Assembly: GCA_965198675.1 (NCBI GenBank)
Contig: OZ240666.1
Coordinates: 146,806-210,805, forward strand
Origin: Prochloron sp.
GTDB taxonomy: Bacteria > Cyanobacteriota > Cyanobacteriia > Cyanobacteriales > Prochloraceae
Length of the DNA stretch: 64,000 nucleotides
Direction: 5' to 3'
Shown: piece after piece, positions 6,930-57,512 of the stretch
How positions within the stretch are numbered: the first letter of the stretch is position 1
Layout of the letters: each line of letters opens with the position of its first letter
Translations under genes and position numbers: made by a program
Notes under the pieces: generated by a model
Databases searched by the model: none
Seen by the model: the letters and a program-made list of their open reading frames with translations, nothing else
Told to the model about the DNA's origin: nothing

Positions 6930-9900
6930 ATGCCTCGCCGCCACGATCTACAGAAAATATTACTTCTCGGTTCCGGTCCCATTGTAATTGGCCAGGCCTG
7001 CGAATTTGACTACTCAGGAACCCAAGCCTGTAAAGCACTGCGCTCTGAAGGATACACTGTTGTCTTGGTCAACTCCAATCCTGCCTCCATTATGACGGAT
7101 CCCCAAATGGCAGATCGCACTTATATCGAACCCCTGACGGAGTCCATGGTAACCAAGGTAATTGCCAAGGAGCGTCCCCATGCTATTCTACCCACCATGG
7201 GGGGACAAACAGCCCTAAACTTAGCTGTAGCCCTCAGTAAAAATGGCGTCCTGGCTAAATATGAGGTAGAACTGATTGGCGCTCAACTGCCCGCTATTGA
7301 AAAGGCAGAAGATCGCCAATTATTCAAGGCAGCAATGGAACGCATTGGTGTGCCTGTCTGCCCTTCAGGTATTGCCAATAATTGGTCAGAAGCCCAAGCT
7401 ATCGCCGCAGAAATCGGTTCTTACCCCCTGATTATTCGCCCTGCTTTTACCCTGGGAGGTACTGGAGGAGGTATCGCCTATAATGAAGAAGAATATGAGA
7501 AATTGGTAGGCTTTGGTTTAGAAGCTAGCCCTGTAAACCAAATATTGGTGGAAAAATCTCTCCTGGGTTGGAAAGAATACGAATTAGAAGTAATGCGAGA
7601 CTTAGCAGATAATGTGGTGATTATTTGCTCCATCGAAAACATCGACCCGATGGGAGTCCATACAGGAGACTCCATGGTGGTTGCCCCTGCTCAAACCCTC
7701 ACAGATAAGGAATACCAGCGGTTGCGGGATTATTCCCAAAAAATTATCCGGGAAATTGGGGTGGAAACCGGGGGTTCTAATATCCAATTTGCCGTGAACC
7801 CGGTAAATGGGGAGGTGATCGTCATCGAAATGAACCCCCGAGTCTCCCGCTCTTCAGCCCTTGCTTCCAAAGCAACGGGTTTTCCCATCGCTAAATTTGC
7901 CTCCCTATTAGCAGTAGGATACACCCTGGATGAAATTACCAACGATATTACCCAGAAAACCCCTGCTTCCTTTGAACCCACCATTGACTATGTAGTCACC
8001 AAAATACCCCGGTTTGCTTTTGAGAAATTCCCCGGTGCCCAACCCCTCCTCACCACCCAAATGAAGTCAGTAGGGGAAGCCATGGCTATTGGGCGCACCT
8101 TCTGTGAATCTTTCCAAAAAGCTCTGCGCTCTTTAGAAATCGGTCGTTACGGTTTTGGCTGCGACAAAGAGGAAACCACTCTTTCCCAAAACCAAATCCT
8201 TTCTAACTTACGCATTCCCAACCCAGAGCGAATTTTTACCTTGCATCAAGCACTCAAATTGGGTATAACAGTAGAGGAAATTAACCAAATCACTGGGATC
8301 GATATCTGGTTCCTGGATAAAATGGCGGAACTGGTAACCACGGAGCACTTCCTAGAAAAGACTCTCTTAAAGAAAATAACCCCAGAAGACATGAGGTTTG
8401 TGAAGCAACAGGGGTTTAGCGATCCCCAAATCGCCTTTGCTACCAAAACCACGGAAGACACAGTACGCACCCACCGCAAGAATTTAGGGGTGGTTCCCGT
8501 TTATAAGCTAGTAGATACCTGCGCTGCGGAGTTTGAGGCATTTACTCCCTACTACTATTCTACCTACGAAACAGCTGAATCGGAAATAAAACCAACAAAC
8601 AAGAGCAAGGTGATGATTTTGGGAGGTGGTCCCAATCGCATCGGTCAGGGGATAGAATTTGACTACTGCTGCTGTCATGCCTCTTTTACCCTAACTGAGG
8701 TGGGATATGAGACCATTATGGTAAATTCCAATCCGGAGACCGTCTCCACTGACTATGATACCAGCGATCGCCTCTATTTTGAACCCCTGACTCAAGAAGA
8801 CGTGCTCAATATCATCGAAGCGGAAAACCCCACAGGGATTATCATTCAATTTGGTGGTCAAACCCCCCTCAAACTAGCAGCAGGACTGGAAAAATACCTA
8901 GCAAGTCCTGAGAATAGGAGCGGGGCGAAAATATGGGGAACCTCCCCCAATTCTATCGATATTGCCGAAGACCGGGAAAGGTTTGGTCAAATACTAGCCA
9001 AACTGAATATTCAGCAACCCGCCAACGGTATCGCCCGCAGCTACTCAGAATCCTTAGCTATTGCCCGTTCCATCGGCTATCCTGTAGTGGTGCGTCCTTC
9101 CTACGTTTTAGGAGGCAGAGCCATGGAAATCGTCTATTCCGATTCTGAACTCCAGCAATACATAATTTATGCGTTACTAATTGAAAAAAAACATCCTATT
9201 TTAATAGATAAGTTTTTGAAAAATGCCATTGAAGTAGATGTAGATGCCATTGCAGATAGTACTGGGAAATGTGTTATGGGTGGAATTATGGAACACATTG
9301 AGCAAGCAGGGATTCATTCAGGAGACTCAGCCTGCTCCATTCCCCATACATCCCTGAGTCCCTCCGTCTTAAAAACAATTGGTCAGTGGACAGAACAATT
9401 AGCTAGAGCATTGCAAGTGGTAGGATTAATGAATATCCAGTATGCAGTGCAGGGAGAAAAGGTCTATATTTTAGAGGCTAACCCCCGTGCTTCTCGAACC
9501 ATTCCCTACGTTTCCAAAGCCATTGGAGTTCCCTTAGCTAAATTAGCCTCTCGTATTATGGCAGGAGAAACCCTCGAATCCTTGAACATAACCACAGAAT
9601 CCAGGGTACAACATATAGCAGTAAAGGAAGCAGTATTACCCTTTGATAAGTTTCCCGGAGCAGACACCCTCTTGGGACCGGAAATGCGCTCTACAGGGGA
9701 AGTAATGGGTATAGATCTGGATTTTGGCAAGGCATTTGCTAAAGCAGAATTAGCAGCAGGGGTGCAACTAGCCACGGAGGGAACCGTGTTTGTTTCCATG
9801 AGCGATGGGGATAAAGAAGCAGCGGTACCGGTGGTGAAAGATTTAATGGATTTGGGTTTTAAAGTAGTAGCAACTTCCGGAACTCGTCGTCTCTTACAGT

Positions 9901-12150: not shown

Positions 12151-12412
12151 TCAGTGGTAATTTAGAATTTCAACCTCATCTGTTCCTCCGTCATTCCAGG
12201 TAAAACAGATGCGGTACTGATCATTTATCCGGATGCTGAACTGCCCAGCGCGGCGGAATGCGAAGTTCATCCAAGGACATGACAGAATCCAGTTGATCTA
12301 GCTTTCGAGCCGCCCGCCCCCACAGATAGGTCGGACATATCCTCCGTGCTGCTTTGGAATCTCTGCCGTTGAAGATATCTTCAGTCCCGGAGTTTTTGAA
12401 TGCTCGAATCAT
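12151..12412 (-). pseudogene. higB: HigB-family toxin (plasmid maintenance system killer), frameshifted
   Basis: The N-terminal part MIRAFKNSGTEDIFNGRDSKAARR...LRIPP stops at 12221. The conserved C-terminus AGQFSIRINDQYRICFTWNDGGTDEVEILNYH* is readable in another frame down to 12151. The segment that normally joins them (GNRLE.LKGDR-like) is missing. Confidence 0.7.
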
Positions 12413-12991
12413 GTTTTCATGATATCATGGAAGTCTTAGTGACGCACCCACAGCCATCCTTCGGGTAGGCAGTGGGCAACGAGCGTCGCCCTTCGGGCGA
12501 GGAGAACTTCATTCGAGGTACTCGGAACTTTCCCCCGACTGCGTTTTATAGTGAGGTATGCGTCCCGCCCCACTTTCAATTCATTGTATCGTAGTTTTGA
12601 AAATCCGTCAATGAATTTTGATATCCGGCGCGGCATCTCCCCTTGGGGGGAGTAGAGGGGGGTTCCTCACACGCCAAAACTCGCGCCCACCGAGTAGGCG
12701 CAAAGGGACGCAATTACACCCCGACTGCGGTATAGCACCGTCTCCTTCCCATCATAAAGGCGTACTTTGCGTCTTTGCGTGACCAAATCAAAGATTATGG
12801 CGTGCGGCTCCTGCCGCCTTAGCTAAAAGGTCTTGTTTGAAGCAGCGCGCCGCCTTGCTGTTCCGTTCCGGATTAATTTTGAGTCTAGTCACCAAGTTGA
12901 GAAAGAAATTGGCAAAGTCGTGATATAGTTTCAATTTCATTCGAGGGTAATTTTTTCGTGAGAGAATAGACGAATAACTAGATAAACTCCA

Positions 12992-13105
12992 TGCTAAGAA
13001 AAATTCGAGCATTGAAAGCCCAAATTGCCCTTTTAGGGTTTGTTTATTTACCTAAGCGGGGAAAAGGTAGTCATGAACGTTGCAGGATTAATGAGTCTAT
13101 ATAGC
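12992..13105 (+). pseudogene. Possible truncated HicA-like toxin
   Basis: 37-codon ORF MLRKIRALKAQIALLGFVYLPKRGKGSHERCRINESI*. The LLGF....GKGSH core resembles HicA but the protein is about half normal length. It overlaps the start of a HicB-like gene. Confidence 0.3.
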
Positions 13106-13309
13106 ATGATAGTTGAATGGTCAGATGAAGACCAGCTTTTTTTAGTTACTATACCAGAATTCTGCGATCGCGTTATTATGCCTTGTACTCATGGCCAAAC
13201 TCGCTCAGAAGCTATTCGTCATGGTGAGGAAGTCATCGCAATGTATTTGGAAGCTTGGCAGACAGAAGGAGAATCTATCCCTAAACCTAGCACATTCCAA
13301 GCTGCTTGA
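13091..13309 (+). CDS. HicB-family antitoxin (UPF0150-like)
   Basis: MSLYSMIVEWSDEDQLFLVTIPEF...CTHGQTRSEAIRHGEEVIAMYLEAWQTEGESIPKP matches the HicB N-terminal fold pattern. The start is uncertain (13073 or 13091). Confidence 0.6.
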   Translation: MSLYSMIVEWSDEDQLFLVTIPEFCDRVIMPCTHGQTRSEAIRHGEEVIAMYLEAWQTEGESIPKPSTFQAA

Positions 13310-13330
13310 TTGTGTTGTTGACTCTCCCCG

Positions 13331-13492
13331 CTTATCATATAATTCATGGTTGGGTAATTAATTGAATACCTTGCCCACCAGCAAAGTGTACGGGACATTT
13401 TAAGTACAGTCCACGACAGTGGACTTCCTATATTAGCACGCAATTTATTAGCGTGCGGGATAGATAGCCAGGTGGGCAATGCTAATATTATA
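13331..13492 (+). repeat. Structured dispersed repeat, copy B
   Basis: Direct repeat of 11655..11829 with small indels. Confidence 0.7.
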
Positions 13493-13500
13493 GTAAGAAT

Positions 13501-13830
13501 TTACTCTAGAGGACGCTCACTGGCAATGCGGATGGCGATCGCATTCAACAATTCGCTCAAAGTCTCTGTAGGTAAGTCTTTCACTTTATCGGCAACTTCG
13601 TCAATAGTGCCGTTAAGCTGCACCGCAAAACCGTTATTTATCATATTGGAACCTCCCACAATAATAGTCAGCCCGGGGGATTTCTCTATAAGATGTTGCG
13701 CTATCTGCAATCGATCATCTAAGGGGAGAGTATCGATACGCTTTTTCAATTCTTCAAGATTCATTAGATTAGAGGAAATAGGTACAGTAGTCAGATAAGC
13801 CAATTTATTGGTTGTGATAACTTCAGACAC
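13501..13830 (-). CDS. Hypothetical protein, downstream partner of an XRE regulator
   Basis: 109-aa ORF starting 9 nt downstream of the HTH gene stop codon on the same strand. No family recognised. Confidence 0.4.
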   Translation of the reverse strand: MSEVITTNKLAYLTTVPISSNLMNLEELKKRIDTLPLDDRLQIAQHLIEKSPGLTIIVGGSNMINNGFAVQLNGTIDEVADKVKDLPTETLSELLNAIAIRIASERPLE

Positions 13831-13839
13831 AATACTTAG

Positions 13840-14196
13840 CTAAACGACTGTTAACAAGTGTTTTATCTCATGAGTACTGTCCGTCTCATTAGGCAGTTGC
13901 GTCCTTTTTAAAGCATTCGCCACCATTTTAAGCAGAATTGCCATTTGTTGCGAGGAGAGTTCATATGGCAAAAAACCCCTAACTCCTAACAATTCACAAG
14001 CCCAAATTTCAATAAATCCGGGTCTCAACTGTTCCGCGATTTCTAGCAGACCGGCAAAATCTTCAATATTAGGACGTACCTTGCCATTGCGGATATCTGA
14101 GATGTTAGACCGGGATCGCCCTGTTGCTTTGGCCAGGATTGAGGGGCGCAAACCAACTTCGTCCATAACTTTCTTGAAACTGTCAGCAAAATCCAT
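13840..14196 (-). CDS. XRE-family helix-turn-helix protein
   Basis: LRPSILAKATGRSRSNISDIRNGKVRPNIEDF is a Cro/C1-type HTH. Confidence 0.65.
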   Translation of the reverse strand: MDFADSFKKVMDEVGLRPSILAKATGRSRSNISDIRNGKVRPNIEDFAGLLEIAEQLRPGFIEIWACELLGVRGFLPYELSSQQMAILLKMVANALKRTQLPNETDSTHEIKHLLTVV

Positions 14197-14210
14197 TTTT
14201 ATCAGAAAAG

Positions 14211-14259
14211 TTAGCTCAATGGGCTTATAATTATAGATGTAATTTAGCTATTGAGCTAA
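14211..14259. promoter_or_regulatory. Perfect 10-bp inverted repeat TTAGCTCAAT-N29-ATTGAGCTAA upstream of the XRE gene (candidate operator)
   Basis: The arms at 14211-14220 and 14250-14259 are exact reverse complements. They lie 15-63 nt upstream of the start at 14196 in an AT-rich region. Confidence 0.35.
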
Positions 14260-14408
14260 TTATATCACAATATTATCTCATTATGATACATCAGCATTAC
14301 GTCTAACGCTTTCTGCGGCAACCGCCAAAGCGTTTAGGACACCATATTTGAAAAGGAAATGGGATATAGGGAAAGAGAAATGTCCTAACCAGCCTGACGA
14401 CTGCTATA

Positions 14409-14673
14409 CTAGTATACTTCATCATGAGTACCAACCGTTTGCAGTAAAATAGCTTCAGTTCCCTTATGTTGTGCGAACTCAAAGATAATTCTTAAGTCGT
14501 ACCCTACGCTACAAGCCCAAGAACCTCCAAGCTCTCCTTTCAGCTAAAGCGGCAGGAGCCTCACAGAGTAATACCAAAGTTAGCTGCAAGTCTTGCGCTG
14601 CTCTAGGATTCTTCTTCACTAAACGCTTAGCTGCTCTGGCAAAAGCATTTGAGCGGATGAGGATACGTTTCAC
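14409..14673 (-). pseudogene. RelE/ParE (YafQ-like) toxin, frameshifted
   Basis: A GTG start overlaps the upstream stop (GTGA). The N-terminal part is VKRILIRSNAFARAAKRLVKKNPRAAQDLQLTLVLL. The C-terminal part LKGELGGSWACSVGYDLRIIFEFAQHKGTEAILLQTVGTHDEVY* is in another frame. Neither half is in the ORF track because both are shorter than 60 aa. Confidence 0.5.
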
Positions 14674-14915
14674 GACAGAATCTCTCCCATAAGTTCATCC
14701 ACTGATACTGGTGAGCATCGCCCCTCTGAAAAGTCTTGACGAGCTTCCCGAACCTCAGCAACTAATATTTGACGACTAAGTTGGGCTGTACGGCGATGCA
14801 AAATATTGAGCAAGGTTTCCTGCTCTTCTAAAGAGAGTTTATCAATCGCTTCTGTAGGATGCGTTACTCTTCTTAATTCTGTTTTGTTTCTACTACTAAC
14901 GATGGCTAACGCATC
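14670..14915 (-). pseudogene. Cognate antitoxin-like ORF with lost start
   Basis: The frame ...EAIDKLSLEEQETLLNILHRRTAQLSRQILVAEVREARQDFSEGRCSPVSVDELMGEILS* is open but has no ATG. Its 5' end is occupied by copies of the small GTAGGATGCGTTAGC repeat. Confidence 0.3.
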
Positions 14916-16745: not shown

Positions 16746-18122
16746 ATGCTCCTAACTATAACCACTACTCACCAACCAGCCACAGACTTAGGCTATTTGC
16801 TCCACAAGCACCCAGAGAGGTTTCAGTCCTTTGACCTCTCTTTTGGCAGGGCATTTGTTTTCTATCCAGAAGCAAGTCCTGAACGGTGTACTGCTGCTCT
16901 GATGCTAGACATGGACCCCATAAAGTTGGTCCGGAAGGAAGGGGCTACTATAGCACAATACGTCAATGACCGTCCCTATGTAGCTTCCTCTTTTCTGAGT
17001 GTGGCCATAGCCCAAGTTTTCAGTACTGCTTTAGCCGGACACTGTCATCATAAACCGGAACTGCCATCAACACCACTAAATTTAATCGCTAAACTGGCAG
17101 TATTACCCTGTAAGCAGGGGTCCGGTTTCCTTCGTCGTCTCTTTGAGCCATTAGGATACCAAATAACTGCAACGGGTCATCAAGAAGATGAAGCATTTCT
17201 CCAGTGGGGGAACAGTCCTTATTTTACCGTCCAACTGGAAGGATTGGTCACGTTACAGCAGTTACTAGAGCATCTTTATGTTCTGATTCCCGTTTTAGAT
17301 GCTCAAAAGCACTATTGGATCGGGGATGAGGAAGTGGAGAAATTGCTGCGTCGCGGGGAAAGTTGGTTGGGAAGTCATCCAGAACGGGAAAGGATCGCCC
17401 GTCGTTACCTCAAACAGCAAGGATATTTGGTGCGGAATGCTCTCACTCAGTTAACTGAGGAGACGATGGAAGAGGAAAAATTGGAACCCCCTCTCAGTCT
17501 CAACCAACAAAGACTGGAAACAGTTGTCGCTACTCTGAAGGAAGCAGGGGTTAGGAAAGTGCTGGACTTAGGTTGTGGGGAAGGGAAGCTGTTGCAGAAA
17601 CTGCTCCAAGAGGACAGTTTTACTAAGATAGTTGGGGTAGACGTATCTTGTCGCTGTTTGGAAATAGCTAAGAAACGTCTGAAACTAGACCGTTTACCAC
17701 CGTTACAGCAGGAACGGATTCAGTTATTACAGGGTTCCCTTACCTATGGTGATAAACGGTTCAAGGGTTACGATGGAGCAACGGTAGTGGAGGTGATAGA
17801 ACATTTAGATCCCTCACGACTCAGTGCCTTTGAAAAGGTTGTGTTTGCCCTTGCTCGACCAAAAACTATTGTTATTACTACCCCTAATCGGGAGTATAAT
17901 GTAAAATTGGAAAACTTACCTCGTAATTGTAACGGCGAGTCACAATCAGGGAAATTGCGTCATCCAGATCATCGTTTCGAGTGGACTCCCTCGGAGTTTC
18001 AAAGTTGGGCCAAATCTGTAGCTGAAAGGTTTGGCTATGAGGTGCAGTTTCAACCTATTGGGGAGTCTGACTCAGTTGTGGGGGCACCCACACAGATGGG
18101 GTTTTTCCTTTGTCAGGATTGA
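16746..18122 (+). CDS. hen1: 3'-terminal RNA ribose 2'-O-methyltransferase Hen1
   Basis: 458 aa. The N-terminal MLLTITTTHQPATDLGYLLHKHPERF is typical of bacterial Hen1. The C-terminal SAM methyltransferase carries VLDLGCGEGKLL and ATVVEVIEHLD. A Pnkp gene lies on the same strand downstream. Confidence 0.85.
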   Translation: MLLTITTTHQPATDLGYLLHKHPERFQSFDLSFGRAFVFYPEASPERCTAALMLDMDPIKLVRKEGATIAQYVNDRPYVASSFLSVAIAQVFSTALAGHCHHKPELPSTPLNLIAKLAVLPCKQGSGFLRRLFEPLGYQITATGHQEDEAFLQWGNSPYFTVQLEGLVTLQQLLEHLYVLIPVLDAQKHYWIGDEEVEKLLRRGESWLGSHPERERIARRYLKQQGYLVRNALTQLTEETMEEEKLEPPLSLNQQRLETVVATLKEAGVRKVLDLGCGEGKLLQKLLQEDSFTKIVGVDVSCRCLEIAKKRLKLDRLPPLQQERIQLLQGSLTYGDKRFKGYDGATVVEVIEHLDPSRLSAFEKVVFALARPKTIVITTPNREYNVKLENLPRNCNGESQSGKLRHPDHRFEWTPSEFQSWAKSVAERFGYEVQFQPIGESDSVVGAPTQMGFFLCQD

Positions 18123-18180
18123 AACACAATTTTGATTAAACTATTGTACAATGTAATCAGAGTAAGATTGAGGAGAGACG

Positions 18181-18498
18181 ATGGCAGTAAAACGTTGGAA
18201 CGATGAAATGCTCGATGGGTTAGCTACAAGCGTGACGGAGATGCGGGAGAGTATGACGGAGATGCGGGAGAGTATGACGGAGATGCGAGGCAGCATGACG
18301 GAGATGCGGGAGAGCATTTCGGAGGTAAGGGATAGTGTAGATGGTTTAAGAGTGACCGTTCAAGCATTGTTACAAGTAGCGGCTCAACATGAACGAGAAA
18401 TAGAGTTAACCAAACAGAGACAAGCAGAAAATGATGAGAGGTTTAATGTTTTGCTGGAAGAAGTACGCTATTTGATTCGAGGTCATCAGGGAGATTAG
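18181..18498 (+). CDS. Small coiled-coil protein, tandem paralog 1 (4 x TEMRES heptads)
   Basis: 105 aa with a GAGGAG Shine-Dalgarno sequence before the ATG. It is the first of four head-to-tail units. Confidence 0.5.
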   Translation: MAVKRWNDEMLDGLATSVTEMRESMTEMRESMTEMRGSMTEMRESISEVRDSVDGLRVTVQALLQVAAQHEREIELTKQRQAENDERFNVLLEEVRYLIRGHQGD

Positions 18499-18568
18499 AA
18501 AATCCAGGGTAATAGCAATGGGCACGAGGGTATTTACAAAGTAATCAGAGTAGGATTGAGGAGAGACA

Positions 18569-18823
18569 ATAGCAGTAAAACGTTGGAACGATGAAATGCT
18601 CGATGAGTTAGCTTCAAGCGTGACGGAGATGCGCGAGAGCATTACGGAGGTAAGGGATAGTGTAGATGGTTTAAGAGTGACCGCTCAAGCATTGTTACAA
18701 GTAGCGGCTCAACATGAACGAGAAATAGAGTTAACCAAACAGAGACAAGCAGAAAACGATGAGAGGTTTAATGTTTTGCTGGAAGAAGTACGCTATTTGA
18801 TTCGAGGTCATCAGGGAGATTAG
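18569..18823 (+). pseudogene. Small coiled-coil protein, tandem paralog 2 (start codon ATG to ATA)
   Basis: The unit is homologous to the others, but the position of the ATG reads ATA (18569-18571). The ORF track starts only at the internal Met (18596). Confidence 0.45.
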
Positions 18824-18893
18824 AAAATCCAGGGTAATAGCAATGGGCACGAGGGTATTTACAAAGTAATCAGAGTAGGATTGAGGAGAGACA

Positions 18894-19169
18894 ATGGCAG
18901 TAAAACGTTGGAACGATGAAATGCTCGATGAGTTAGCTTCAAGCGTGACGGAGATGCGCGAGAGCATTACGGAGATGCGGGAGAGCATTACGGAGGTAAG
19001 GGATAGTGTAGATGGTTTAAGAGTGACCGCTCAAGCATTGTTACAAGTAGCGGCTCAACATGAACGAGAAATAGAGTTAACCAAACAGAGACAAGCAGAA
19101 AATGATGAGAGGTTTAATGTTTTGCTGGAAGAAGTACGCTATTTGATTCGAGGTCATCAGGGAGATTAG
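18894..19169 (+). CDS. Small coiled-coil protein, tandem paralog 3 (2 heptads)
   Basis: 91 aa, near-identical to paralogs 2 and 4 except for one extra 21-nt repeat. Confidence 0.5.
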   Translation: MAVKRWNDEMLDELASSVTEMRESITEMRESITEVRDSVDGLRVTAQALLQVAAQHEREIELTKQRQAENDERFNVLLEEVRYLIRGHQGD

Positions 19170-19239
19170 AAAATCCAGGGTAATAGCAATGGGCACGAGG
19201 GTATTTACAAAGTAATCAGAGTAGGATTGAGGAGAGACA

Positions 19240-19494
19240 ATGGCAGTAAAACGTTGGAACGATGAAATGCTCGATGAGTTAGCTTCAAGCGTGACGGAGA
19301 TGCGCGAGAGCATTACGGAGGTAAGGGATAGTGTAGATGGTTTAAGAGTGACCGCTCAAGCATTGTTACAAGTAGCGGCTCAACATGAACGAGAAATAGA
19401 GTTAACCAAACAGAGACAAGCAGAAAACGATGAGAGGTTTAATGTTTTGCTGGAAGAAGTACGCTATTTGATTCAAGGTCATCAGGGAGATTAG
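19240..19494 (+). CDS. Small coiled-coil protein, tandem paralog 4 (1 heptad)
   Basis: 84 aa. The unit spacing to paralog 3 is 346 nt. Confidence 0.5.
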   Translation: MAVKRWNDEMLDELASSVTEMRESITEVRDSVDGLRVTAQALLQVAAQHEREIELTKQRQAENDERFNVLLEEVRYLIQGHQGD

Positions 19495-19575
19495 AAAATC
19501 CCACTCTGAAGTTGCATTATCCTCCTCAAAAGGATAATGTGAAATTATAAAATTTATCACCGTTGAGAAATAACT

Positions 19576-20808
19576 ATGGGCAAGCGCAAGGGCAAAACAA
19601 AAGGTAAGAAGAGGAGCAACCATTATGATTGTGCTCCCTATAGACAGGTTTTAAAGGACAATTTTATTCCCAAGCTCTTCCATGATATGGTTCCTCAAGT
19701 ACAGGAATGGTGCGAAGAGGTTGAAGGAAGATATCCAGATTTTGCTTTGGAGTTTAAGTTTAGTTATATGGTGTCTCGAAAAGCCAAACCAAAATCTAGG
19801 TTGAACCAGGACTGCTATACAATGGCATTTTGGCTCAAGCTGAAGCAACCTTTCCCTGATTTAATGGCATTAATAAATGAACACCGTGAGACTATTTTTG
19901 AAGCGATTCCTTTTTTGACCTATCTTGACTTGTATAGATATCACGGGGATGCCCATAGTTTGCCTTGGGACGATGTGAGCTGTTTTAGGGACTTACCAGT
20001 TTGGACTCCAAGTTACAAAGAAGAAGGTGCATGGTATGACTACGTGGATTATCCTGAGGAAGAAAATCCGATTCTAAGGATGTTTGAGCAATACCCCGTG
20101 TTTAATTTAGCAGATGCTTTGGCGGAATTTCGCAGTTCTGTTGAAGCAGGATTAATTGAGTCTTATAGCACTAGGATTGAAGAAAGAACTATGGGTAAGC
20201 GCAAGAAAAAAGGAAGGAAGCATGATTTTTATCTTCCCAGAACGTGGTTTTTTAAAGATAATGATATTCCCAATATATTATTGCATGACATGCTTCCTAA
20301 AGTCGAGCAATGGGAAGCAGAGGTTAACCGAAGATATCAATGTGATTTCGGGATTAAGTTTCGCTGTCTAGTGGAGGGTAAAAGACCGTTTCTGGATAAC
20401 TCCTATGACTATGAAATGGCATTTTGGCTGAAGCTGAGAAACCCTCTACCTTCTGATTTAATGGCATTAATGGATGACTACTGTGATATTATCTATGAAG
20501 AAATTCCCTTTTTGACCTATCTTGATATCTACAGATATGATAGCTACCCAGAGTGTTTGCCCTGGAAGAATGTGAGATGTTATGGGAATTTCCCAGATTA
20601 TGAGAAGTTGATTGAGGAGGAGGAATACTATGATTATGTGATTGATGAGGAGGAACCATGGAAAAACAAAAAACCATGGGAGGACTACTATAGTGAGGAA
20701 GATAATCCGATTCTAGTTTTGTTCGAGGAATACCCTGAATTTAATTTAGCAGATGCTTTGGCAGAATTTCGCAGTTCTGTTGAAGAAGAATTAATTGAGT
20801 CTTATTAA
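19576..20808 (+). CDS. Unknown protein made of two fused copies of a 205-aa module (basic MGKRKGK head, acidic tail)
   Basis: Residues 1-205 and 206-410 are paralogous. Both begin MGKRK.. and both end NLADALAEFRSSVE..LIESY. The second module starts at the internal ATG at 20191. Confidence 0.5.
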   Translation: MGKRKGKTKGKKRSNHYDCAPYRQVLKDNFIPKLFHDMVPQVQEWCEEVEGRYPDFALEFKFSYMVSRKAKPKSRLNQDCYTMAFWLKLKQPFPDLMALINEHRETIFEAIPFLTYLDLYRYHGDAHSLPWDDVSCFRDLPVWTPSYKEEGAWYDYVDYPEEENPILRMFEQYPVFNLADALAEFRSSVEAGLIESYSTRIEERTMGKRKKKGRKHDFYLPRTWFFKDNDIPNILLHDMLPKVEQWEAEVNRRYQCDFGIKFRCLVEGKRPFLDNSYDYEMAFWLKLRNPLPSDLMALMDDYCDIIYEEIPFLTYLDIYRYDSYPECLPWKNVRCYGNFPDYEKLIEEEEYYDYVIDEEEPWKNKKPWEDYYSEEDNPILVLFEEYPEFNLADALAEFRSSVEEELIESY

Positions 20809-20917
20809 GGCGACCCCGGCTTTGCCGGGATCCGCTACGGGGCGCGCCGGAAATTGCATTATCTTTCTGAAAAGGATAATGTACAATTATAACACTTATC
20901 ACCGTTGAGGAATAACT

Positions 20918-21544
20918 ATGGGCAAGCGCAGAGGTAAGAAAAAATGAGAAAAGTGGTTCAAGCGTCATGGTTGGGAATTTCCCAGGAATTGGTTTTTTAA
21001 GGACAATTTTATTCCCCCGATACTTTCAGAAATGCTTCCTCTAATCCAAAAATGGCGCGAAGAGGTTAACCGAAGATATCTATGTGATTTAGGGGTTAAG
21101 TTTCGCTGTCTAGTGGAGGGAAAAAGACAGTTTTTGGATAACTCCTATGAAATGGCATTTTGGCTGGAGCTGAGGGACCCTCCACTTTCTGATTTAGTGG
21201 AATTAATGAATGACTACTGTGATATCTATGACGCAATTCCCTTTTTGACCTATCTTGACTTGTACAGATATGATGACGACGCCGATTATTTGCCTTGGGA
21301 GAATGTGAGATGTTATGGGAACTTCCCAGAGTATGAGAAGTTGATTGAGGAGGAGGAAGACTATGATTATGTGATTGATGAGGAGGAACCACGGAACAAC
21401 AAAAAACCATGGGAGGAATACTATAGTGAGGAAGATAATCCGATTCTAGTTTTGTTCGAGGAATGCCCCGAGTTTAATTGGGCAGGTGCTTTGGCAGAAT
21501 TTCGCAGTTCTATGGAAGAAGAATTAATTGAGGTTGATGATTAA
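20918..21544 (+). pseudogene. Third copy of the 205-aa module, with in-frame TGA at codon 10
   Basis: It reads ATGGGCAAGCGCAGAGGTAAGAAAAAATGA and then continues in the same frame (EKWFKRHGWEFPRNWFFKDNFIPPILSEMLP...) into ORF 21032..21544. Its stop codon (21542-21544) directly abuts the pnkp ATG at 21545. Confidence 0.5.
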
Positions 21545-22214
21545 ATGGATATCAAAATTCCCGAACTCTCCCTTATTGTCCTCATTGGTGTTTCCGGTTC
21601 CGGTAAATCTACTTTTGCTCGAAAACACTTCCAACCCACGGAGGTTATTTCCTCAGATACTTGTCGAGGGTTGGTATCGGACGATGAAACGGACCAGTCC
21701 GCTACTAAAGATGCTTTTGAGGTTCTCCATTTTATCGCCGCCAAACGTTTAGCTGGGCGTCGTTTGACCGTAATAGACGCTACTAATGTGAAAGCAGAAG
21801 ACAGGAAACCGCTGTTAAAGTTGGCTAAGCAATACCACTTTTTTAGTGTGGCGATCGCCTTTAACTTACCACCAAAACTCTGTCAGGAACGGAACAAAAA
21901 CCGCTCCAACCGCCAGTTTAGTTCTCAGGTAGTCCACCGTCAGAGTCAATATTTGCGTCGGGGGTTAAATAAGCTGAAACGGGAAGGGTTCCGCTACCAT
22001 TATATCCTCTCTTCTGTAGAAGGAATAGATAAAGTTTCCATTCATCGTCAGCCACTTGGTCATAATTTACGTCAGGAACATGGTCCTTTTGATATTATCG
22101 GGGACATTCACGGTTGCTATGATGAACTGGAAACTCTACTGCAAAACCTAGGATACCAAATAACTGCTCATCCCGACCCAAGTTCTGGTTGGTATGGCCC
22201 AATATATCATCACC

Positions 22215-22567
22215 TTTTAGTTACCAGTGACCAGTAATCACGTACCATGGTAGCAGCTCAACCTTGGGTTTGAGGCCCCCACCTTTCAGTTACCAGTGAC
22301 CTTGTACCATGATAGTGACCAGTAATCACGTACCATGGTAGCAGCTCAACCTTGGGTTTGAGGCCCCCACCACTTATTTGGTGGCAAGCCACTTATTGGT
22401 GGAAGGTAACTGGTAACTGCCTGACTGCCCCGGTTGGCATGAGCAGGACTGGTAACTGGTAACTGGTCACTGCCTGACTGCCCCGGTTGGCATGAGCAGG
22501 ACTGGTAACTGGTAACTGGTCACTGGTAACTGGTAACTGGTCACTGGTAACTGGTCACTGTTTTACC
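22215..22567. mobile_element. 353-bp non-autonomous repeat insertion (MITE-like, STRR-rich) inside pnkp
   Basis: Deleting exactly 22215-22567 joins ...YHH to PEGRKAVFLGDLVDRGP in frame. The termini are inverted (GTTACCAGTGACC / GGTCACTGGTAAC). The inside holds two copies of an approximately 86-bp left unit, two copies of an approximately 62-bp right unit and CTGGTAA/CTGGTCA heptamer runs. Confidence 0.65.
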
Positions 22568-23323
22568 CAGAGGGGCGTAAAGCAGTCTTCTTGGGGGATT
22601 TAGTGGACAGGGGACCAAAAATCTTGGCTACCCTTAAGTTAGTGCGGAATATGGTGGAATTGGGCACTGCTTTGTGCGTTCCCGGGAACCATGATATCAA
22701 GTTGGTGCGGAAGCTGGAAGGCAGAAATGTGCAAGTTAAGCACGGTTTAGCCCAGACTTTAGCAGAGTTGGAACCCCTTTCAGAAGAGTTTAAGCAGTCT
22801 ATTGCTGCTTTCCTTGACGGTCTCGTCAGTCACTACGTCCTAGACCAGGGTAAATTAGTAGTAGCCCATGCAGGAATGAAAGAGTCCATGCAGGGTAGGG
22901 GTTCGGGACAAGTGCGCAGCTTTGCCCTCTATGGGGAAACAACTGGGGAAATTGACCAGTTTGGTTTACCAGTGCGCTATGAGTGGGCCAAAGAATATCG
23001 GGGTCAAGCTCTGGTTGTGTACGGTCATACCCCTGTTCCCGAACCAGAATGGCTCAATAATACCATCGATATCGATACGGGTTGCGTTTTTGGGGGGAAG
23101 TTGACTGCACTGCGCTATCCGGAAAAGGAACTGGTTTCTGTTGCTGCTGGGAAAACCTATTGTGAACCAGTGAAGCCTTTTTTACCTAATGTCGGCAGAA
23201 GGCTCACACCATAATCTTCGACCTGCTAAGGTCTGGCTATACCTTAGCAGGGGTGTGAGATGAATGACGACGCCGGGATTTATATGCTAGAATAAATCAA
23301 ATGGGCAGGCAATGGATAAGACC

Positions 23324-24572
23324 ATGTTGATCTACGAGATGAAACTGGAAGGAACTAAAGAACAGTACCCACCCCCCTTGCCCCCCTCCCGGGAGGGGGG
23401 TTGGGGGGTGGGTAGCTATTCGTACTGGGCGTTTTATTCGTAACAGTATCATCAGAGCGTGGATTGACAGAGAAGTGAAGAGTCGCAACTCAGCCTACAA
23501 ATATTGCAAGATTTTGGCAGATAATCCAGAGTTCCCTTGGGCAAAGCAGTTAAACTCGCAAGCAAGACAAGCCCACGCCGAAAGAACATGGGCTGCAATC
23601 GAGCGCTTCTTTTTAAACTGCAAGGCAAAAATTCAAGGAAAAAAGGGGTATCCAAAGTTTAAAAAGTATCAGGTCAGGGCGTCGGTGGAGTACAAAACTT
23701 CCGGTTGGAAACTGTCCGAAGATCGTAAGTATTTGACTTTTTCTGACAAGTTCCAAGCAGGTAAATTTAGACTTTGGGGTAGCCGTGACCTTCACTATTA
23801 TCAACTCAACCAGATTAAACGAGTGCGAGTAGTGAGGAGGCATGATGGCTATTACGCGCAATTTGTAATTAACCACTCCAGGAGGGAAACTAAGGAACTA
23901 TCCAACAAACAATCAGGGCTAGATGTTGGTTTAAACCATTTCTACACAGACTCCCATGGCGATACAGTCGATAATCCAAGGTTTTTAAGAAAAGGTGAAC
24001 GGCGTATTAAAAAGCTACAAAGACGTTTATCTCGAACTAAAAAGGGCAGTAGTAACCGCTCTAAAGCTAGGAATCGCTTAGGTAGAGCGCATCGATCGGT
24101 TTCCCGCAAACGTAACGATTGGGTATGTAAGTTGGCCCAGCGCGTCATACGGTCTAACGACTTAGTAGCGATTGAAAACCTAACAGTGCGTAATATGGTG
24201 AGAAACCACTGTTTAGCTAAATCTATTAACGATGCAGCTTGGTATAAATTCCGAGAATGGCTAGAGTATTTTGGGACCATTTATGGGGTGAAAGTGATTG
24301 CCATTGACCCCAAATATACTTCTCAAAACTGTTCTAATTGTGGGAAAAAGGTGACCAAAACATTGAGCACCAGAACTCACAATTGTCTTCATTGCGGTTA
24401 TATAGCTGATCGGGATGAGAACGCTGCCATCAATATCCTGTCTGCTGCATTGGAACAATTAAAAACTACCCTGGGGCACAGGGAAAGTAACGCCTCTGGA
24501 GAGACTCCCCTCTGCCTAGTAGTGGAAACACCGCTGAGTAAGGGAACTCGCAGAAAGAGGAAATCCTCATAG
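23324..24572 (+). pseudogene. tnpB: TnpB (IS605 OrfB) RNA-guided nuclease, N-terminus frameshifted by a 46-nt palindromic mini-insertion
   Basis: MLIYEMKLEGTKEQY (frame 2) is followed by 46 nt of C/G-run palindrome (23369-23414). The protein resumes as AIRTGRFIRNSIIRAWID... (frame 0). The C-terminal zinc finger and RuvC are present (CSNCGKKV...HNCLHCGYIADRDENAAINIL). Confidence 0.75.
23369..23414. repeat. C/G-run palindromic mini-element (CCCACCCCCC..CCCTCCCGGGAGGGGGG..GGGGGGTGGG)
   Basis: It is a near-perfect palindrome. Related copies lie at 58602-58643, about 59196-59245, about 12636-12665, about 31262-31310 and about 39222-39275. Confidence 0.7.
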
Positions 24573-26065
24573 CAATATGGGAATCCCCCGCTATACTGCG
24601 TAGCAGTTAGCGGCGGGAGGATGTCAATTACCACCCAACAGCAGTTGGACGATGTGTTAGAGTTGGAAGACTTGTTAGTTAAAAAGACCATTGAGACCAG
24701 ACTGGGACCCAGGGTAACTATTGGGGAAGAAAATGCTAGGACTGCCTTGGAAGTCATGAGTCGATTTGCAGTTAATCCCAAGTGGCTGATATATTTACCC
24801 TCAACCATGTCTCCCTCGGAAACTTCCAGTAAACCGGGTTTATTGGAATATCCCACAGAAGCTTTTGCTTATTATAGTCGTCTGGGTGTCTCTCAAGTAA
24901 TTTGCGAAGAAAAGCATATGGGTTCCCGGGGGATAGTTATAGTGTGTCGGCATGAAGAGGCAGCACAACGGCGATTTGGGGTAGTTGACGAAGGGATTGG
25001 CATTTGCTATAGTCGTACAGGAAGGCGTTTCTTTAAGAATCCAAAGCTGGAATAGGAAGTACTAACTCAATTACAAAGAGCACTTACAAGAGGGGGATTT
25101 TGGCAAGAGTTTGAGACGGACTGGATTTGTTTGGACTGCGAAATAATGCCTTGGTCTGTGAAAGCTGAGGAACTGATTCGAGAACAATATGCAGCAGTGG
25201 GGGTAGCTGCACGGGTTGCTCTGTCTTCTGCTGTTTCTTTGCTCCAACAAGGTGCGGTGCGGGGTTTAAATGTGGGGGAAATTTTAACTCGCTATCAGGA
25301 GAAGGAGCAATTAGCCCAACGATACGTACAAGCATACCGTCCTTATTGTTGGGAAGTGAATGGTATTAGGGACTTAAAGTTAGCTCCGTTCCACCTGTTA
25401 GCCACAGAAGGGGCAGTTTACGGGGATAGGGACCATCTCTGGCATCTGAATATATTAGGGCAAATCTGTCGTACTGACCCCTTGTTAATGACACCAACTG
25501 AGTATAAAGTAGTGGATACCAAAAATCCAGATTCGGAAGCAGAAGCAATTAAGTGGTGGAAGGAACTTACTGCTGCGGGGGGAGAAGGAATGGTAGTTAA
25601 ACCTTTGTCTTTTATAGCTAAAAGCAAACGGGGGTTAATGCAACCAGCATTGAAATGTCGCGGTCAGGAATATTTGCGGATTATCTATGGTTTGGAATAT
25701 ACTTTGTCAGAGAATTTGGAGCGATTGCGTCAGAGAGGGTTATCTAGGAAGCGGAGTCTAGCATTGAAAGAGTTTTGTTTGGGTATGGAAGCTTTGGAGC
25801 GATTTGTGGAACGGGAACCTTTGCGTCGGGTTCATGAATGTGTCTTTGCTATTCTCGCATTGGAGAGTGAACCTGTGGATCCTCGTTTGTAGGGTGGGCA
25901 TTGCCCACCAATAACCACCCGTACCCTCGTCTCCCCGCCCGCGAATGAATTGCGGACTACCTTATAAAACACCGAGCGGGTTGAATATTGAGTTGCGTTC
26001 AAACAGATAATTCTGTAATGGCGCAAGGTTTGCGCCCTCTTTAAACTATCCCACTGTAGCGACAA

Positions 26066-26914
26066 ATGACAAAAAAGAAAGCCGATATCAGCACGAAAAG
26101 ATTAATTAGTTTATCTCCAAATGAGTGGATACAATGGGTCATGCAAAGAACCGAATTTGAAGCGAAAGAGATTATTTCCTCTGAGTTTCAGTGGGTGAGT
26201 CGAGAAGGAGACGTTTTAGTTAAAGCATATAGTGACGATTTGGGGGAGTTTTTAATTCTCAATGAGTTACAATTGAGGTATACTAAAAAAGTACCTCGAC
26301 GCATGAGAGCGTATGCAGCTTTGGCGGAGGAAAAATATGAACTTCCCGTTTATCCAGTTTTGATTAATATACTGGAAGCGTCTTCAGAAACCATTACTAG
26401 TTCCTTCCAGAGTAATTTTGCTGGTTTGAGGGCGATCCAAGAGTATCGAGTAATAAACTTGTGGGAAGTAGACGTAGATATAGTCTTCCAGCGCAATTTA
26501 TCTACATTGCTGCCATTAGTGCCGATCCTGAAAGGAGGAGGGAAAGAAAAAGTCATCAAACGTGCTTTAAGAGAGTTACGAGTCCAAAAACAACCAGGTG
26601 AGCTAGAATCAATATTAGGGTTCTTTGCTACCTACGTTTTAGACACTAGTTTAGTTCGAGAAATTCTGAGGTTCGATATGGCAATTTTAGAACAATCCCC
26701 TTTGTATCGAGAGATAGTCTCCAAGAGCAAACAAGAAGGCATAGCGATCGGCGAACAGCGTGGTATTCAGCAAGTCGCTACTAATATGCTCCGCATGGGT
26801 ATATCAAGGGAGCAAGTCTCTGAGGCGACAGGAATCTCTGTTGAGCAAGTGGCTCGATTACTTGAGAAATCCTCAGTATCTGAGGGGCGCGCACCGCGTA
26901 GCGGATCTCTTTGA
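26066..26914 (+). CDS. Rpn-family recombination-promoting nuclease / putative transposase (PD-(D/E)XK with DUF4351-like tail), intact copy
   Basis: 282 aa. The MTKKKADISTKRLISLSP... head and the ...LEQSPLYREIV...GIQQVATNMLRMGISREQVSEATGISVEQVARLL tail are typical of the cyanobacterial Rpn/transposase_31-like family. Confidence 0.65.
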   Translation: MTKKKADISTKRLISLSPNEWIQWVMQRTEFEAKEIISSEFQWVSREGDVLVKAYSDDLGEFLILNELQLRYTKKVPRRMRAYAALAEEKYELPVYPVLINILEASSETITSSFQSNFAGLRAIQEYRVINLWEVDVDIVFQRNLSTLLPLVPILKGGGKEKVIKRALRELRVQKQPGELESILGFFATYVLDTSLVREILRFDMAILEQSPLYREIVSKSKQEGIAIGEQRGIQQVATNMLRMGISREQVSEATGISVEQVARLLEKSSVSEGRAPRSGSL

Positions 26915-27020: not shown

Positions 27021-27265
27021 TACGCAGGAGGTCAACTTGCGTCGGGTTCATGAATGTGTGTTTGCTATTCTTGCATTGAAAAGCGAACCTGTGGATCCTC
27101 GTTTGTAGGGTGGGCATTGCCCACCAATAACCGCTCGCCCGCGAATGAATTGATTGCTCTCCTTATTAAACCCCTTCAGGATTTCATATTTAGTTGCGTT
27201 CAAACATAGAAGTAGGAGCGCCACCATCTTTGCGCCCTCTTTAAATTATCCCACTATACCGACAA

Positions 27266-27878
27266 ATGACCAAAAAGAAAGCCGATATCAGCACGAAACG
27301 ATTAATTAGTTTTGATTAATATACTGGAAGCGTCTTCAGAAACGATTGCTAGTTCCTTCCAGAGTAATTTTGCTGGTTTGAGGGTGATCCAAGAGTATCG
27401 AGTAATAAACTTGTGGGAAGTAGACGTAGATATAGTCTTCCAGCGCAATTTATCTACATTGCTACCATTAGTGCCGATCCTCAAAGGAGGAGGAGAAGAA
27501 CAAGTCATCAGACGTGCTTTAGGAGAGTTACGAGTTCAAAAACAACCAAGGGAGTTAGAATCAATATTAGGGTTCTTTGCTACCTACGTTTTAGACACTA
27601 GTTTAGTTCGAGAAATTCTGAGGTTCGATATGGCAATTTTAGAACAATCCCCTTTGTATCGAGAGATAGTCTCCAAGAGCGAAAAGCGAGGTATCGCGAT
27701 CGGCGAACAGCGAGGAGAAAAGCGAGGCATTCAACGAGTCGCTACTAATATGCTCCGCATGGGTATGACAAGGGAGCAAGTCTCTGAGGCGACAGGAATC
27801 TCTGTTGAGCAAGTTGCTCGATTACTTGAGAAATCCTCAGTATCTGAGGGGCGCGCACCGCGTAGCGGATCTCTTTGA
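27266..27878 (+). pseudogene. Rpn-family gene, copy 2, with internal out-of-frame deletion of about 250 bp
   Basis: It has the same first 16 codons as copy 1, then jumps from ...LIS to VLINILEAS at an AGTTT microhomology. The frame is lost (MTKKKADISTKRLISFD*). Confidence 0.65.
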
Positions 27879-28248
27879 GATCGCTCTGGTTAGAAACGGA
27901 GCCGTTAATCTCTATATCAAGGTTTGGACGGTGCGTTGCCATTGCGAAGCAAAGCGTAAGCAACCGCCTTTGGCGTCCGCACCCTACGCAGGAGGTCAAC
28001 TTGCGTCGGGTTCATGAATGTGTGTTTGCTATTCTTGCATTGGAGAGTGAACCTGTGGATCCTCGTTTGTAGGGTGGGCATTGCCCACCAAGCAACGCGC
28101 CCTTTATAAAACCCCGACCGGGTTTCAATTACTCCCCTCCTGGGGTTGAAACCCCAGGCTATTCCCTACTCTTCTCATGATTTTTTACCCCAACAGTGCC
28201 CCTACATTTTGCCGATCGTATCAATTCTCTTGTAGGCATCGCCCACCA

Positions 28249-28455
28249 ATGCTACTATCACCAGTACTCACCAACCAGCCACAGACTTAAGCTATTTGCT
28301 CCACAAGCACCCAGAGAGGTTTCAGTTCTTGCGAAGAAGAGAATAGGGATCCGGATACGGTGGAAGAGAAAAATTAGAACACCCTCTCAGTCTCAACGAA
28401 CAGCCGACGGTCAACAGTTGTCGCTACCCTCAAGGAAGCAGGGGTTAAGGAAGTG
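28249..28455 (+). pseudogene. hen1 relic (two fragments of a second hen1 copy)
   Basis: 28249-28330 aligns to hen1 16746-16830, including the ATG, with a 1-nt deletion. 28355-28455 aligns to hen1 about 17463-17570. The approximately 630 bp in between and the whole methyltransferase domain are missing. Confidence 0.7.
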
Positions 28456-29241
28456 CTAGACTTGATCTTGGTGACGTTCTGGATGACCGAACCATGATCT
28501 ATGGCGATCGTCATACATTTGATTCAAGACTTGTTCCACATCATTCATCGTTCCGTCAGCGTCAACCCATCCACCTTCTAGATCGGGGAAGTCAAGCCGA
28601 CAGTTTTCACACTTTTTACCATCGTAAAATTTGATTGGGCACCAAAATGATTCAACGTTGCGTAACATTTCGGCACCGAGGGAGTACACACCCGTCATCC
28701 AGTCACAGTAAAGACACCAAATCAGATCGTGTCCGACCAATCCTTCAAACTTGTGACGACTAACATTGACCCAATCACTGTGCTTGTATTTGGGAAACCC
28801 AAGTAACCAAATTAGCATTGGATAGACGAAAACCTCTGAGAACCGGAGCAGAAAAAATACGGGCACGATAATCGAGGTCACCCACAACGCCAAGTGATTA
28901 CGCCACCACCCAATGCGCTGGCTATGGAAACGGGCGATACGGGAGCCAGGTGCAACATTGCGGTTCAGGAACTCGTGGTAAAAAATCCATAACTGCATCG
29001 CCAAGACCTGGGCAAGAAGGCTTGCCACAATGCCCCCCCATCGCACAGTTAGACCACCTATCAACCAAGGAACCAATATTATAAAGGATAATAACCAGTC
29101 CAGCATCGGGGCTTTGGTACATGCATCGACAGCATCTTTTCCCCATGTCCCGAGCGATGGCATTGAGGTCAGCAGCAAGAACAGCAAAACCTCGAAGGTC
29201 AAGATGGCTAAAAAAACTGTTGTGTATACAATCATTATCAA
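28456..29241 (-). CDS. Polytopic membrane protein with Cys-rich C-terminal domain, unknown function
   Basis: 261 aa with about 6 hydrophobic helices, then WCLYCDW...FWCPIKFYDGKKCENCRLDF. No family recognised. Confidence 0.45.
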   Translation of the reverse strand: MIMIVYTTVFLAILTFEVLLFLLLTSMPSLGTWGKDAVDACTKAPMLDWLLSFIILVPWLIGGLTVRWGGIVASLLAQVLAMQLWIFYHEFLNRNVAPGSRIARFHSQRIGWWRNHLALWVTSIIVPVFFLLRFSEVFVYPMLIWLLGFPKYKHSDWVNVSRHKFEGLVGHDLIWCLYCDWMTGVYSLGAEMLRNVESFWCPIKFYDGKKCENCRLDFPDLEGGWVDADGTMNDVEQVLNQMYDDRHRSWFGHPERHQDQV

Positions 29242-42529: not shown

Positions 42530-43005
42530 AACCGATAATTGCGCTCCCCTACCCAAAGACTAACGGGGACTGCATTTCCTTTACTATCCACCTTCACTTC
42601 TACCACAAATTGCCGTTCTTCCTTTTGTATCTCCCTGATCTGGGCATTAATCTCCTTACGCTTATTTTCTGGCATATAATAGGTTTCCAGCCCATAGTCA
42701 ATCCAGTCAGCACCCCCGGCTGAAGCACGGTTGCTCTCATGCCTCCAGCTTCAGGTAGCTGACCAGCCGTAGGATGCGTTACGCCATAGCTGTCAGCTTT
42801 AAACACTTCTCCAGACGTGTGCTAACGCATCCTACTTAACTGACTACGTTTTCCTTCGTCACGACACCTTCAGGTGCTTTCCAGCCTGTCGCTCTGTCGC
42901 TAATCATTAAACAGCCTTAGTAGGGGTAAAGCAGTGTGGTTGGCCCAACAAGCTTAGAAAACATTGGCAAGGAACACATTACACATCTGTAGACGAGACG
43001 CAACC

Positions 43006-57418: not shown

Positions 57419-57512
57419 CGGTGTGTTCTTCACAGTCAAGTCGGGTAAGGTTCAGGAATCACTTCCCTCCCCTCCCCTAAGAACCGGACGTGACAGTTTC
57501 CTATCATCCGGC

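Follow-up and report, generated by a model that had tools for sequence, protein, structure and literature searches.

A tandem array of length-variable coiled-coil genes with conserved ends in a Prochloron genome

Organization of the array

A tandem array of small genes, predicted to encode coiled-coil proteins, is present in a genome assigned to Prochloron sp. It occupies positions 18155-19504 of the window, by which we mean the whole 64,000-nucleotide (nt) stretch of contig OZ240666.1 that was analysed. Repeat analysis of the window revealed four units arranged head to tail on the + strand. Unit starts, anchored on the shared upstream sequence AATCAGAGTA[AG]GATTGAGGAGAGAC, fall at 18155, 18543, 18868 and 19214, which gives spacings of 388, 325 and 346 nt. 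The same three lengths were reported in the original prediction, an earlier reading of this DNA from sequence alone, together with the claim that they differ by exact multiples of 21 nt; the differences are indeed 63 and 21 nt. The array is composed as follows (aa, amino acids).

18155-18542, + strand: unit 1 (388 nt); ribosome-binding site GAGGAG at 18170-18175; open reading frame (ORF) 18181-18498, 105 aa, A-type (G13, V39), 4 heptads
18229-18324, + strand: 21-nt tract of copy 1; Tandem Repeats Finder, 4.6 copies, 85% matches
18543-18867, + strand: unit 2 (325 nt); ribosome-binding site; reading frame 18569-18823, 84 codons, B-type, 1 heptad, ATA start
18868-19213, + strand: unit 3 (346 nt); ORF 18894-19169, 91 aa, B-type, 2 heptads; 21-nt tract 18948-18995
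19214-19494, + strand: unit 4; ORF 19240-19494, 84 aa, B-type, 1 heptad; R79Q at a position nearly invariant in the family

Tandem Repeats Finder reports a period of 325 nt over 18292-19501 (3.7 copies, 94% matches, score 2175) and two shorter arrays with a period of 21 nt, at 18229-18324 (4.6 copies) and 18948-18995 (2.3 copies). A repeat search recovered a 300-nt block in four copies with 94-98% identity, in agreement with the near-identity of copies claimed earlier; the fourth copy of the block scores 75% because the block extends beyond the end of the array. Length and identity of the repeat rule out its origin by chance. Copies 1-4 contain 4, 1, 2 and 1 heptads of the form TEMR(E/G)S, the numbers given by the original prediction, and one degenerate heptad, [ST]EVRDS, is present in all four. 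The first two units of the copy 1 tract differ at their first base only. Each start is preceded at a distance of 5 nt by its own GAGGAG (18170-18175, 18558-18563, 18883-18888 and 19229-19234), again as predicted.

Copy 2 deviates from the others in its start codon: ATA stands at 18569-18571, where the other copies read ATG, a change that had been noticed before. The frame is otherwise open to the stop codon at 18821-18823. An in-frame TGA (18557-18559) lies four codons upstream of ATA, and the next in-frame ATG (18596) would yield 75 aa devoid of the invariant residues R5, W6 and D8. The corresponding copy of a sister strain, described below as L001, reads ATG. Copy 2 is thus probably silenced by a G-to-A point change at its start codon.

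A promoter scan found a weak promoter-like site at 18119-18147 ahead of copy 1. No unit-specific promoters or terminators were detected inside the array; counts do not exceed those in shuffled sequences, and no Rfam match to non-coding RNA was obtained in or near it. ORFs of 78-85 aa also run on the minus strand across unit junctions (18406-18642, 18731-18988 and 19077-19313). Since they are open in just 17 of the 81 loci compared in this work, they were taken as a by-product of the coiled-coil codon pattern and were rejected as candidate genes.

Predicted structure of the product

AlphaFold2 monomer models consist of a single helix in both copies modelled, comprising residues 2-83 of the 84-aa product of unit 4 (mean confidence score, pLDDT, 92.7) and residues 2-104 of the 105-aa product of unit 1 (pLDDT 90.4). 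From about residue 11 up to the C-terminal motif, all copies can be read in a single heptad register. The share of hydrophobic residues is 67-73% at a/d positions and 23-28% at the others, so that a continuous a/d hydrophobic pattern runs along an unbroken predicted helix, as is canonical for coiled coils. Neither signal peptide nor N-terminal hydrophobic segment nor membrane helix was found in the protein. The whole chain is an acidic amphipathic helix with net charge of -8, and its location is probably cytoplasmic.

One 21-nt unit corresponds to one full heptad of the protein, V/I(a)-T-E-M(d)-R-E-S. A change by whole heptads would therefore keep both reading frame and coiled-coil phase. The rod would measure about 12-15 nm, with about 1 nm per heptad. 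We infer that the protein forms homo-oligomers; beta-branched residues in a positions together with Leu/Met in d positions would fit a parallel dimer, which is a guess.

A cyanobacterial protein family with conserved ends

With the 84-aa product as query, 564 homologues were retrieved at E<=1e-3. Essentially all are cyanobacterial, and nearly all are labelled hypothetical or bear spurious coiled-coil names. Their lengths form a ladder with 7-residue steps (84, 91, 98, 105, 112, 119 and so on). A profile search of 1.84 billion representative proteins returned 138 cluster representatives, nearly all shorter than 200 aa and without added domains. No model of Pfam, NCBIfam, PHROGs or PADLOC reaches its own threshold with this protein: the best Pfam score is 20.5 bits at a cut-off of 30.1, and the sub-threshold matches (DUF4763, FlaC_arch, ZapB and SlyX; LmuB and ZorA of PADLOC) concern generic coiled-coil segments. 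Profile search of Protein Data Bank sequences gave nothing better than E=5e-4, and that match is a designed coiled coil. Neither the family nor its peptide motifs turned up in the searchable literature. It is thus a family restricted to cyanobacteria and uncharacterised in curated libraries and searchable literature. Mobile-element origin of the array genes was considered as well and rejected, as tblastn against 50,697 phage and 72,556 plasmid records produced no match.

Motifs invariant across the family are located at both ends of the protein. These are M..RW.D.M[LVI]D.L[AST] at the N-terminus, and DG[LI]R...QALLQ with RF[ND]..LEEVR at the C-terminus. In fuller form the conserved parts read M..RW.DEMLD.LAS and DGLRVT.QALLQVAAQ ... 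RQAE.D.RFN.LLEEVRYL.RG, respectively. All four copies of the window possess the family motifs, copy 2 in frame behind its ATA. An alignment of 14 sequences contains 38 invariant columns. Differences from 25 distant homologues are distributed over codon positions as 309:197:743, and by this measure the array genes are protein-coding and evolve under purifying selection. Four remote members (P0239, P0223, P0191 and P0270) retain the N-terminal QRWTD.MLD and C-terminal RQAE.DQRFN.LLEE.RYLIR motifs only; their middle parts are unrelated repeated coiled coils built of 13-14-residue units, which points to the two conserved ends as the functional parts.

Further, we examined how length varies in the family. 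The stretch that separates the N-terminal motif from DGLR has 10+7n residues in 71 of the 78 genes taken from genomes and in 113 of the 119 proteins taken from databases. The window copies follow the same whole-heptad rule, with 38, 17, 24 and 17 residues in copies 1-4. Several exceptions come from Nostoc, where a 4-residue NLRE insertion gives a step of 7+4 = 11 residues. Most genes have a C-terminal part of 52 aa, and the second-largest group one of 59 aa; longer values are scattered and cluster near 70 and 73-75 aa. Steps of 7 and 18 residues agree with known coiled-coil periodicities.

Adjacent repeats are often near-identical at DNA level. A pair of adjacent 21-nt units with at least 90% identity occurs in 26 of the 51 genes having at least three heptad units (the degenerate last unit included), and adjacent heptads use an identical codon at 76% of positions with the same residue. 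Such similarity indicates that expansion and contraction are ongoing. Alleles were also grouped by flanks at least 95% identical; heptad number varies inside 11 of these 13 groups, a count that is inflated because the database collapses alleles more than 90% identical. From the sequences compared, variation in heptad number characterises the entire family, single-copy genes of free-living cyanobacteria included.

Sets of several copies were found in other genomes too.

L031, Crocosphaera: 98, 116 and 106 aa
L045, uncultured cyanobacterium: 77 and 84 aa
L065, Xenococcaceae: 86 and 114 aa
L077, Snowella: 119 and 112 aa
L035, Pseudanabaenales: 105, 77 and 88+ aa
L010, Dolichospermum: 91 and 98 aa

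These sets are tandem or near-tandem, and their co-resident copies have common lineage-specific tails and rods of unequal length.

Turnover of units between related strains

The closest relatives of the window belong to the sponge-symbiont group Candidatus Paraprochloron terpiosi. Comparison with sister strains, which the original prediction had proposed, was informative: unit composition and heptad numbers differ between strains, and more distant relatives carry two units or one.

Window: 4 units; 105, (84 behind ATA), 91 and 84 aa
Sister strain L001 (4.72-Mb contig), flanks 98-99% identical: 4 units; 105, 112, 91 and 84 aa; 4, 5, 2 and 1 heptads; all starts ATG
L082 (SP5CPC1-type), flanks about 92-96% identical: 2 units; 112 and 91 aa
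L003 (LD05), flanks about 89-96% identical: 1 unit; 112 aa

To trace individual units, the conserved coding flanks (the first 15 and last 52 codons) were compared. Flanks of window copy 1 match exactly those of sister copy 2, not of sister copy 1, and window copy 1 has one heptad fewer than its match. Window copy 2 is of the unit 4 type: with its single heptad and a synonymous AAC marker it resembles copy 4 of both window and sister. Flanks of window copy 3 likewise match those of sister copy 3 exactly. A minimum of two events at the level of units, plus one change of heptad number, therefore separates strains that are 1-2% apart elsewhere. Unit turnover and heptad change are thus real and recent, and the earlier claim of recent amplification or conversion combined with change of intragenic repeat number stands.

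An assembly artefact is countered indirectly by two independent multi-megabase contigs, each of which contains four units with unit-specific single-nucleotide polymorphisms. Two further assemblies of the SP5CPC1 locus (L083 and L084) end inside the array; such a break of short-read assemblies is the behaviour expected of a genuine repeat.

Window copies 1 and 3 show no synonymous difference, whereas their L082 orthologues differ at 4-6 synonymous sites. Synonymous homogenisation within a genome indicates gene conversion. Two types of copies can nevertheless be told apart in the window, in the sister strain and in L082, namely A-type (G13, V39; 4-5 heptads) and B-type (E13, A39; 1-2 heptads). 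That two replacement differences outlast conversion hints that both long and short forms are kept, although the numbers are small. Sister copy 1 carries T38I and E62K, both at invariant positions of the family. Together with the ATG-to-ATA change of copy 2 and R79Q of copy 4, these substitutions mark redundant copies that are starting to decay.

Genomic neighbourhood

The array lies between hen1 and a group of 'module' genes on the same (+) strand, where the original prediction had placed it, and the module genes are followed by pnkp.

16746-18122, + strand: hen1, intact; Pfam Hen1_L E=2.2e-109 and methyltransferase domains; left neighbour of the array
19576-21544, + strand: 'module' ORFs, three copies of about 200 aa, two of them fused in 19576-20808 (410 aa) and the third at 21032-21544
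21545-25892, + strand: pnkp, broken; kinase part 21545-22213, 350-nt repeat-rich insert, phosphatase part 22564-23184
23475-24572, + strand: ORF of an IS605-type TnpB element in pnkp, which separates phosphatase and ligase parts
24627-25889, + strand: ligase part of pnkp, itself interrupted between 25055 and 25131

Hen1 is the RNA 3'-end 2'-O-methyltransferase of the Pnkp-Hen1 RNA repair pair. The module protein has no family match; homologue search gave one sister-strain paralogue, and its 90%-identity cluster comes entirely from this clade. Judged by these searches it is a clade orphan and offers no functional lead. Module proteins are very acidic yet begin with a basic stretch, MGKRKGKTKGKKR. 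The stop codon of the last module ORF abuts the ATG of pnkp, which suggests translational coupling of the two.

The repair pair is decaying in opposite directions in two sister strains. In the window hen1 is intact and pnkp is split; in the sister strain pnkp is intact (858 aa, 12305-14881) and hen1 is reduced to its C-terminal 165 aa (8302-8799). The insert between kinase and phosphatase parts of window pnkp (22214-22564) resembles a miniature inverted-repeat transposable element, with runs of ACTGGTA/ACTGGTC, direct repeats of 53 and 58 nt, and 29-nt inverted arms at 22219-22247 and 22503-22531. Downstream, remnants of a canonical pnkp-then-hen1 junction are found at 27037-27099, 28001-28063 and 28254-28464: the last 21 codons of pnkp recur twice and are followed by hen1 fragments (aa 4-27 and 243-275). 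The remnants are separated by Rpn-like ORFs (26066-26914 and 27312-27878). The present place of hen1 upstream of pnkp therefore looks secondary.

Other signs of mobile-element load were detected by Rfam search: a HEARO RNA at 42706-42982 (+ strand, 108 bits), associated with an IS605/HNH-type element, and the catalytic domain of a group II intron at 57440-57516 (- strand, 62 bits). The segment 28001-31248 of the window is 99% identical with 7465-10712 of L082, while surrounding genes are 92-96% identical; it may represent recent exchange or an unusually constrained segment.

Neighbourhoods of 81 loci were compared by tblastn with Hen1, Pnkp, the module protein and LysM-M23, and all neighbouring ORFs were clustered. 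In the window, L001, L082 and partly in L085, hen1, array, module and pnkp follow each other in this order on a single strand, separated by short gaps. At about 74 loci of other cyanobacteria neither hen1 nor pnkp was found within 10 kb, so that linkage with the Pnkp-Hen1 pair is limited to the Paraprochloron-type clade. L003 retains an intact 112-aa coiled-coil gene, while its pnkp and hen1 are reduced to remnants. No neighbour is shared among the 81 loci: 140 flanking ORFs match 175 Pfam families, and the commonest ones, MtnA/IF-2B (8 loci) and DXS (4), reflect synteny within Nostoc. Because other loci are devoid of hen1/pnkp and the coiled-coil ORFs stay intact where pnkp or hen1 is broken, we treat the linkage as positional. 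The place of the array between hen1 and pnkp is best seen as an accident of location specific to this clade, not as functional dependence.

Discussion

The array is most readily explained as clade-specific tandem amplification of one member of a family of cyanobacterial coiled-coil rods that vary in length between conserved ends, a reading to which we assign a probability of roughly 65%. Amplification would have proceeded in a lineage-specific manner from one unit to two and then to four. Slippage or unequal exchange among 21-nt repeats would add or drop whole heptads, about 1 nm of rod each, and since frame and coiled-coil phase are kept, such changes would be tolerated and build up fast. Between the units of about 325 nt, unequal crossing-over and gene conversion would alter their number and homogenise the copies. 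The outcome, concerted evolution with birth and death of copies, is the best-supported description of what the compared strains suggest. In this genome the array would supply rods of 84, 91 and 105 aa, each acting perhaps as a length-adjustable spacer or adaptor whose conserved ends bind partners.

Several points weigh against this explanation or parts of it. The spacer or adaptor role with partner-binding ends is weakly supported and comes from the anatomy of the protein. A helix predicted for a monomer says little about assembly. Multi-copy sets of differing length appear to have arisen repeatedly in cyanobacteria, and the independence of these events rests on the lineage-specific tails of co-resident copies; the nearest-neighbour test of independent duplication used the conserved motifs, which are too conserved to discriminate. 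The inflated count of length polymorphism mentioned above belongs here too, as does the tight packing on one strand in four related genomes, which leaves a clade-specific link with RNA repair as an outside chance.

In a stronger version of the spacer role, the N-terminal and the C-terminal motif would each dock one partner, and the number of heptads in between would set how far apart the partners lie, in steps of about 1 nm. Length diversity would then be under selection and 21-nt slippage would be the means of tuning. Co-resident sets of unequal length in Crocosphaera, Snowella, Xenococcaceae, Pseudanabaenales and Dolichospermum, along with A- and B-types of the present array, which persist across species in spite of gene conversion, can be cited in its favour. 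Two mutational processes that act often could produce such sets as well. We regard a genetically tunable spacer as unlikely.

The copies might instead be neutral debris: recombination in an eroding symbiont genome would have left them behind without a function, and they would be heading for loss. The lost start of copy 2, the substitutions at conserved positions of copy 4 and sister copy 1, differences among units that are mostly nonsynonymous, the decay of adjoining hen1 and pnkp and the presence of insertion elements all agree with this. On the other hand, three of four copies have an intact frame, a ribosome-binding site and all invariant residues; A- and B-types are both kept in L082, whose flanks differ from the window by 4-8%, despite synonymous homogenisation within genomes; and purifying selection on the family as a whole is strong. 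Functionless debris is thus rather improbable.

The original prediction had likened the pattern to contingency, fast-evolving loci. On such a reading, selection would favour the 21-nt repeat and the tandem arrangement for their high mutability, as a source of heritable, reversible variation in a protein that faces changing challenge from host or phage. The part concerning variation stands: heptad number and unit composition differ between strains with flanks 1-2% apart, adjacent 21-nt units are near-perfect copies, family alleles with nearly identical flanks vary in length, and the array breaks short-read assemblies. The part concerning switching and exposure does not. The 21-nt unit is a multiple of 3, every variant stays in frame and there is no on/off switch of expression; the sole silenced copy owes its silencing to a point mutation, not to repeat change. 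No product exposed at the surface or secreted by a classical route is predicted, the protein being an acidic helix free of signal peptide and membrane segment and probably cytoplasmic. Slippage should be much rarer in a tract of 1-5 repeats of 21 nt than in the short-unit tracts known from classical contingency genes. The same length variation is seen in free-living taxa whose gene is present once, and phage and defence-system libraries give coiled-coil noise only. A contingency locus is accordingly a poor candidate.

Least probable is an accessory subunit of Hen1-Pnkp RNA repair, with coiled-coil and module proteins scaffolding or regulating the complex: the conserved gene order and the junction of the last module ORF with the start codon of pnkp speak for it, but they are outweighed by the many loci without hen1 or pnkp, by the intact copy in L003, where pnkp and hen1 are remnants, by array ORFs that stay open despite broken pnkp in the window and truncated hen1 in the sister strain, by the net charge, which makes direct RNA binding unlikely, and by the junction remnants at 28001-28464, which suggest a secondary origin of today's gene order.

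Coiled-coil genes are well known to amplify in tandem and to vary in their in-frame repeats, so the array itself is no surprise. What it adds is a conserved cyanobacterial family, described by no curated library or searchable paper, with invariant ends and free heptad length. If the rod is indeed a spacer or ruler, the family would offer a natural, small and tractable system for how cells read coiled-coil length. If it is not, the array would be a clean case of concerted evolution with copy birth and death in a symbiont genome whose RNA-repair neighbours are decaying.

Comparison with known systems

Classical contingency loci, such as tetra- and pentanucleotide tracts in surface-protein genes of Haemophilus and Neisseria, resemble the array in that intragenic repeat number changes between close strains. 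Their units are not multiples of 3, toggle expression and belong to genes for surface products, whereas the 21-nt unit stays in frame and alters length only.

ZapB, SlyX and comparable bacterial coiled-coil proteins of about 80 aa are similar to the array proteins in size, single-helix architecture and probable cytoplasmic location. Profile matches to them are weak (E=0.08 for ZapB and E=0.05 for SlyX), far below curated cut-offs, and reflect coiled-coil composition. These families differ in the absence of RW.DEMLD and RFN.LLEEVRYL end motifs and of heptad-number variation.

In the streptococcal mrp-emm-enn cluster of M and M-like protein genes, tandem coiled-coil paralogues change their number of in-frame repeats by recombination, which gives rise to size variants among strains. 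The array shares this arrangement of tandem coiled-coil paralogues with in-frame repeats. M proteins, however, are large virulence factors with signal peptide and wall anchor, under immune selection, while the array proteins, of an unrelated family, have 84-105 aa, lack an export signal and are not known to act as antigens.

Braun's lipoprotein Lpp is, like the array proteins, a small all-helical coiled coil, and its heptad length sets a physical distance. In experiments with Lpp+14 and Lpp+21, added heptads reportedly kept Lpp functional and changed this distance. The ruler analogy is put forward as a hypothesis only. Lpp is an exported, lipid-anchored trimer whose length variants were engineered; the array proteins, in contrast, are probably cytoplasmic and vary in length naturally.

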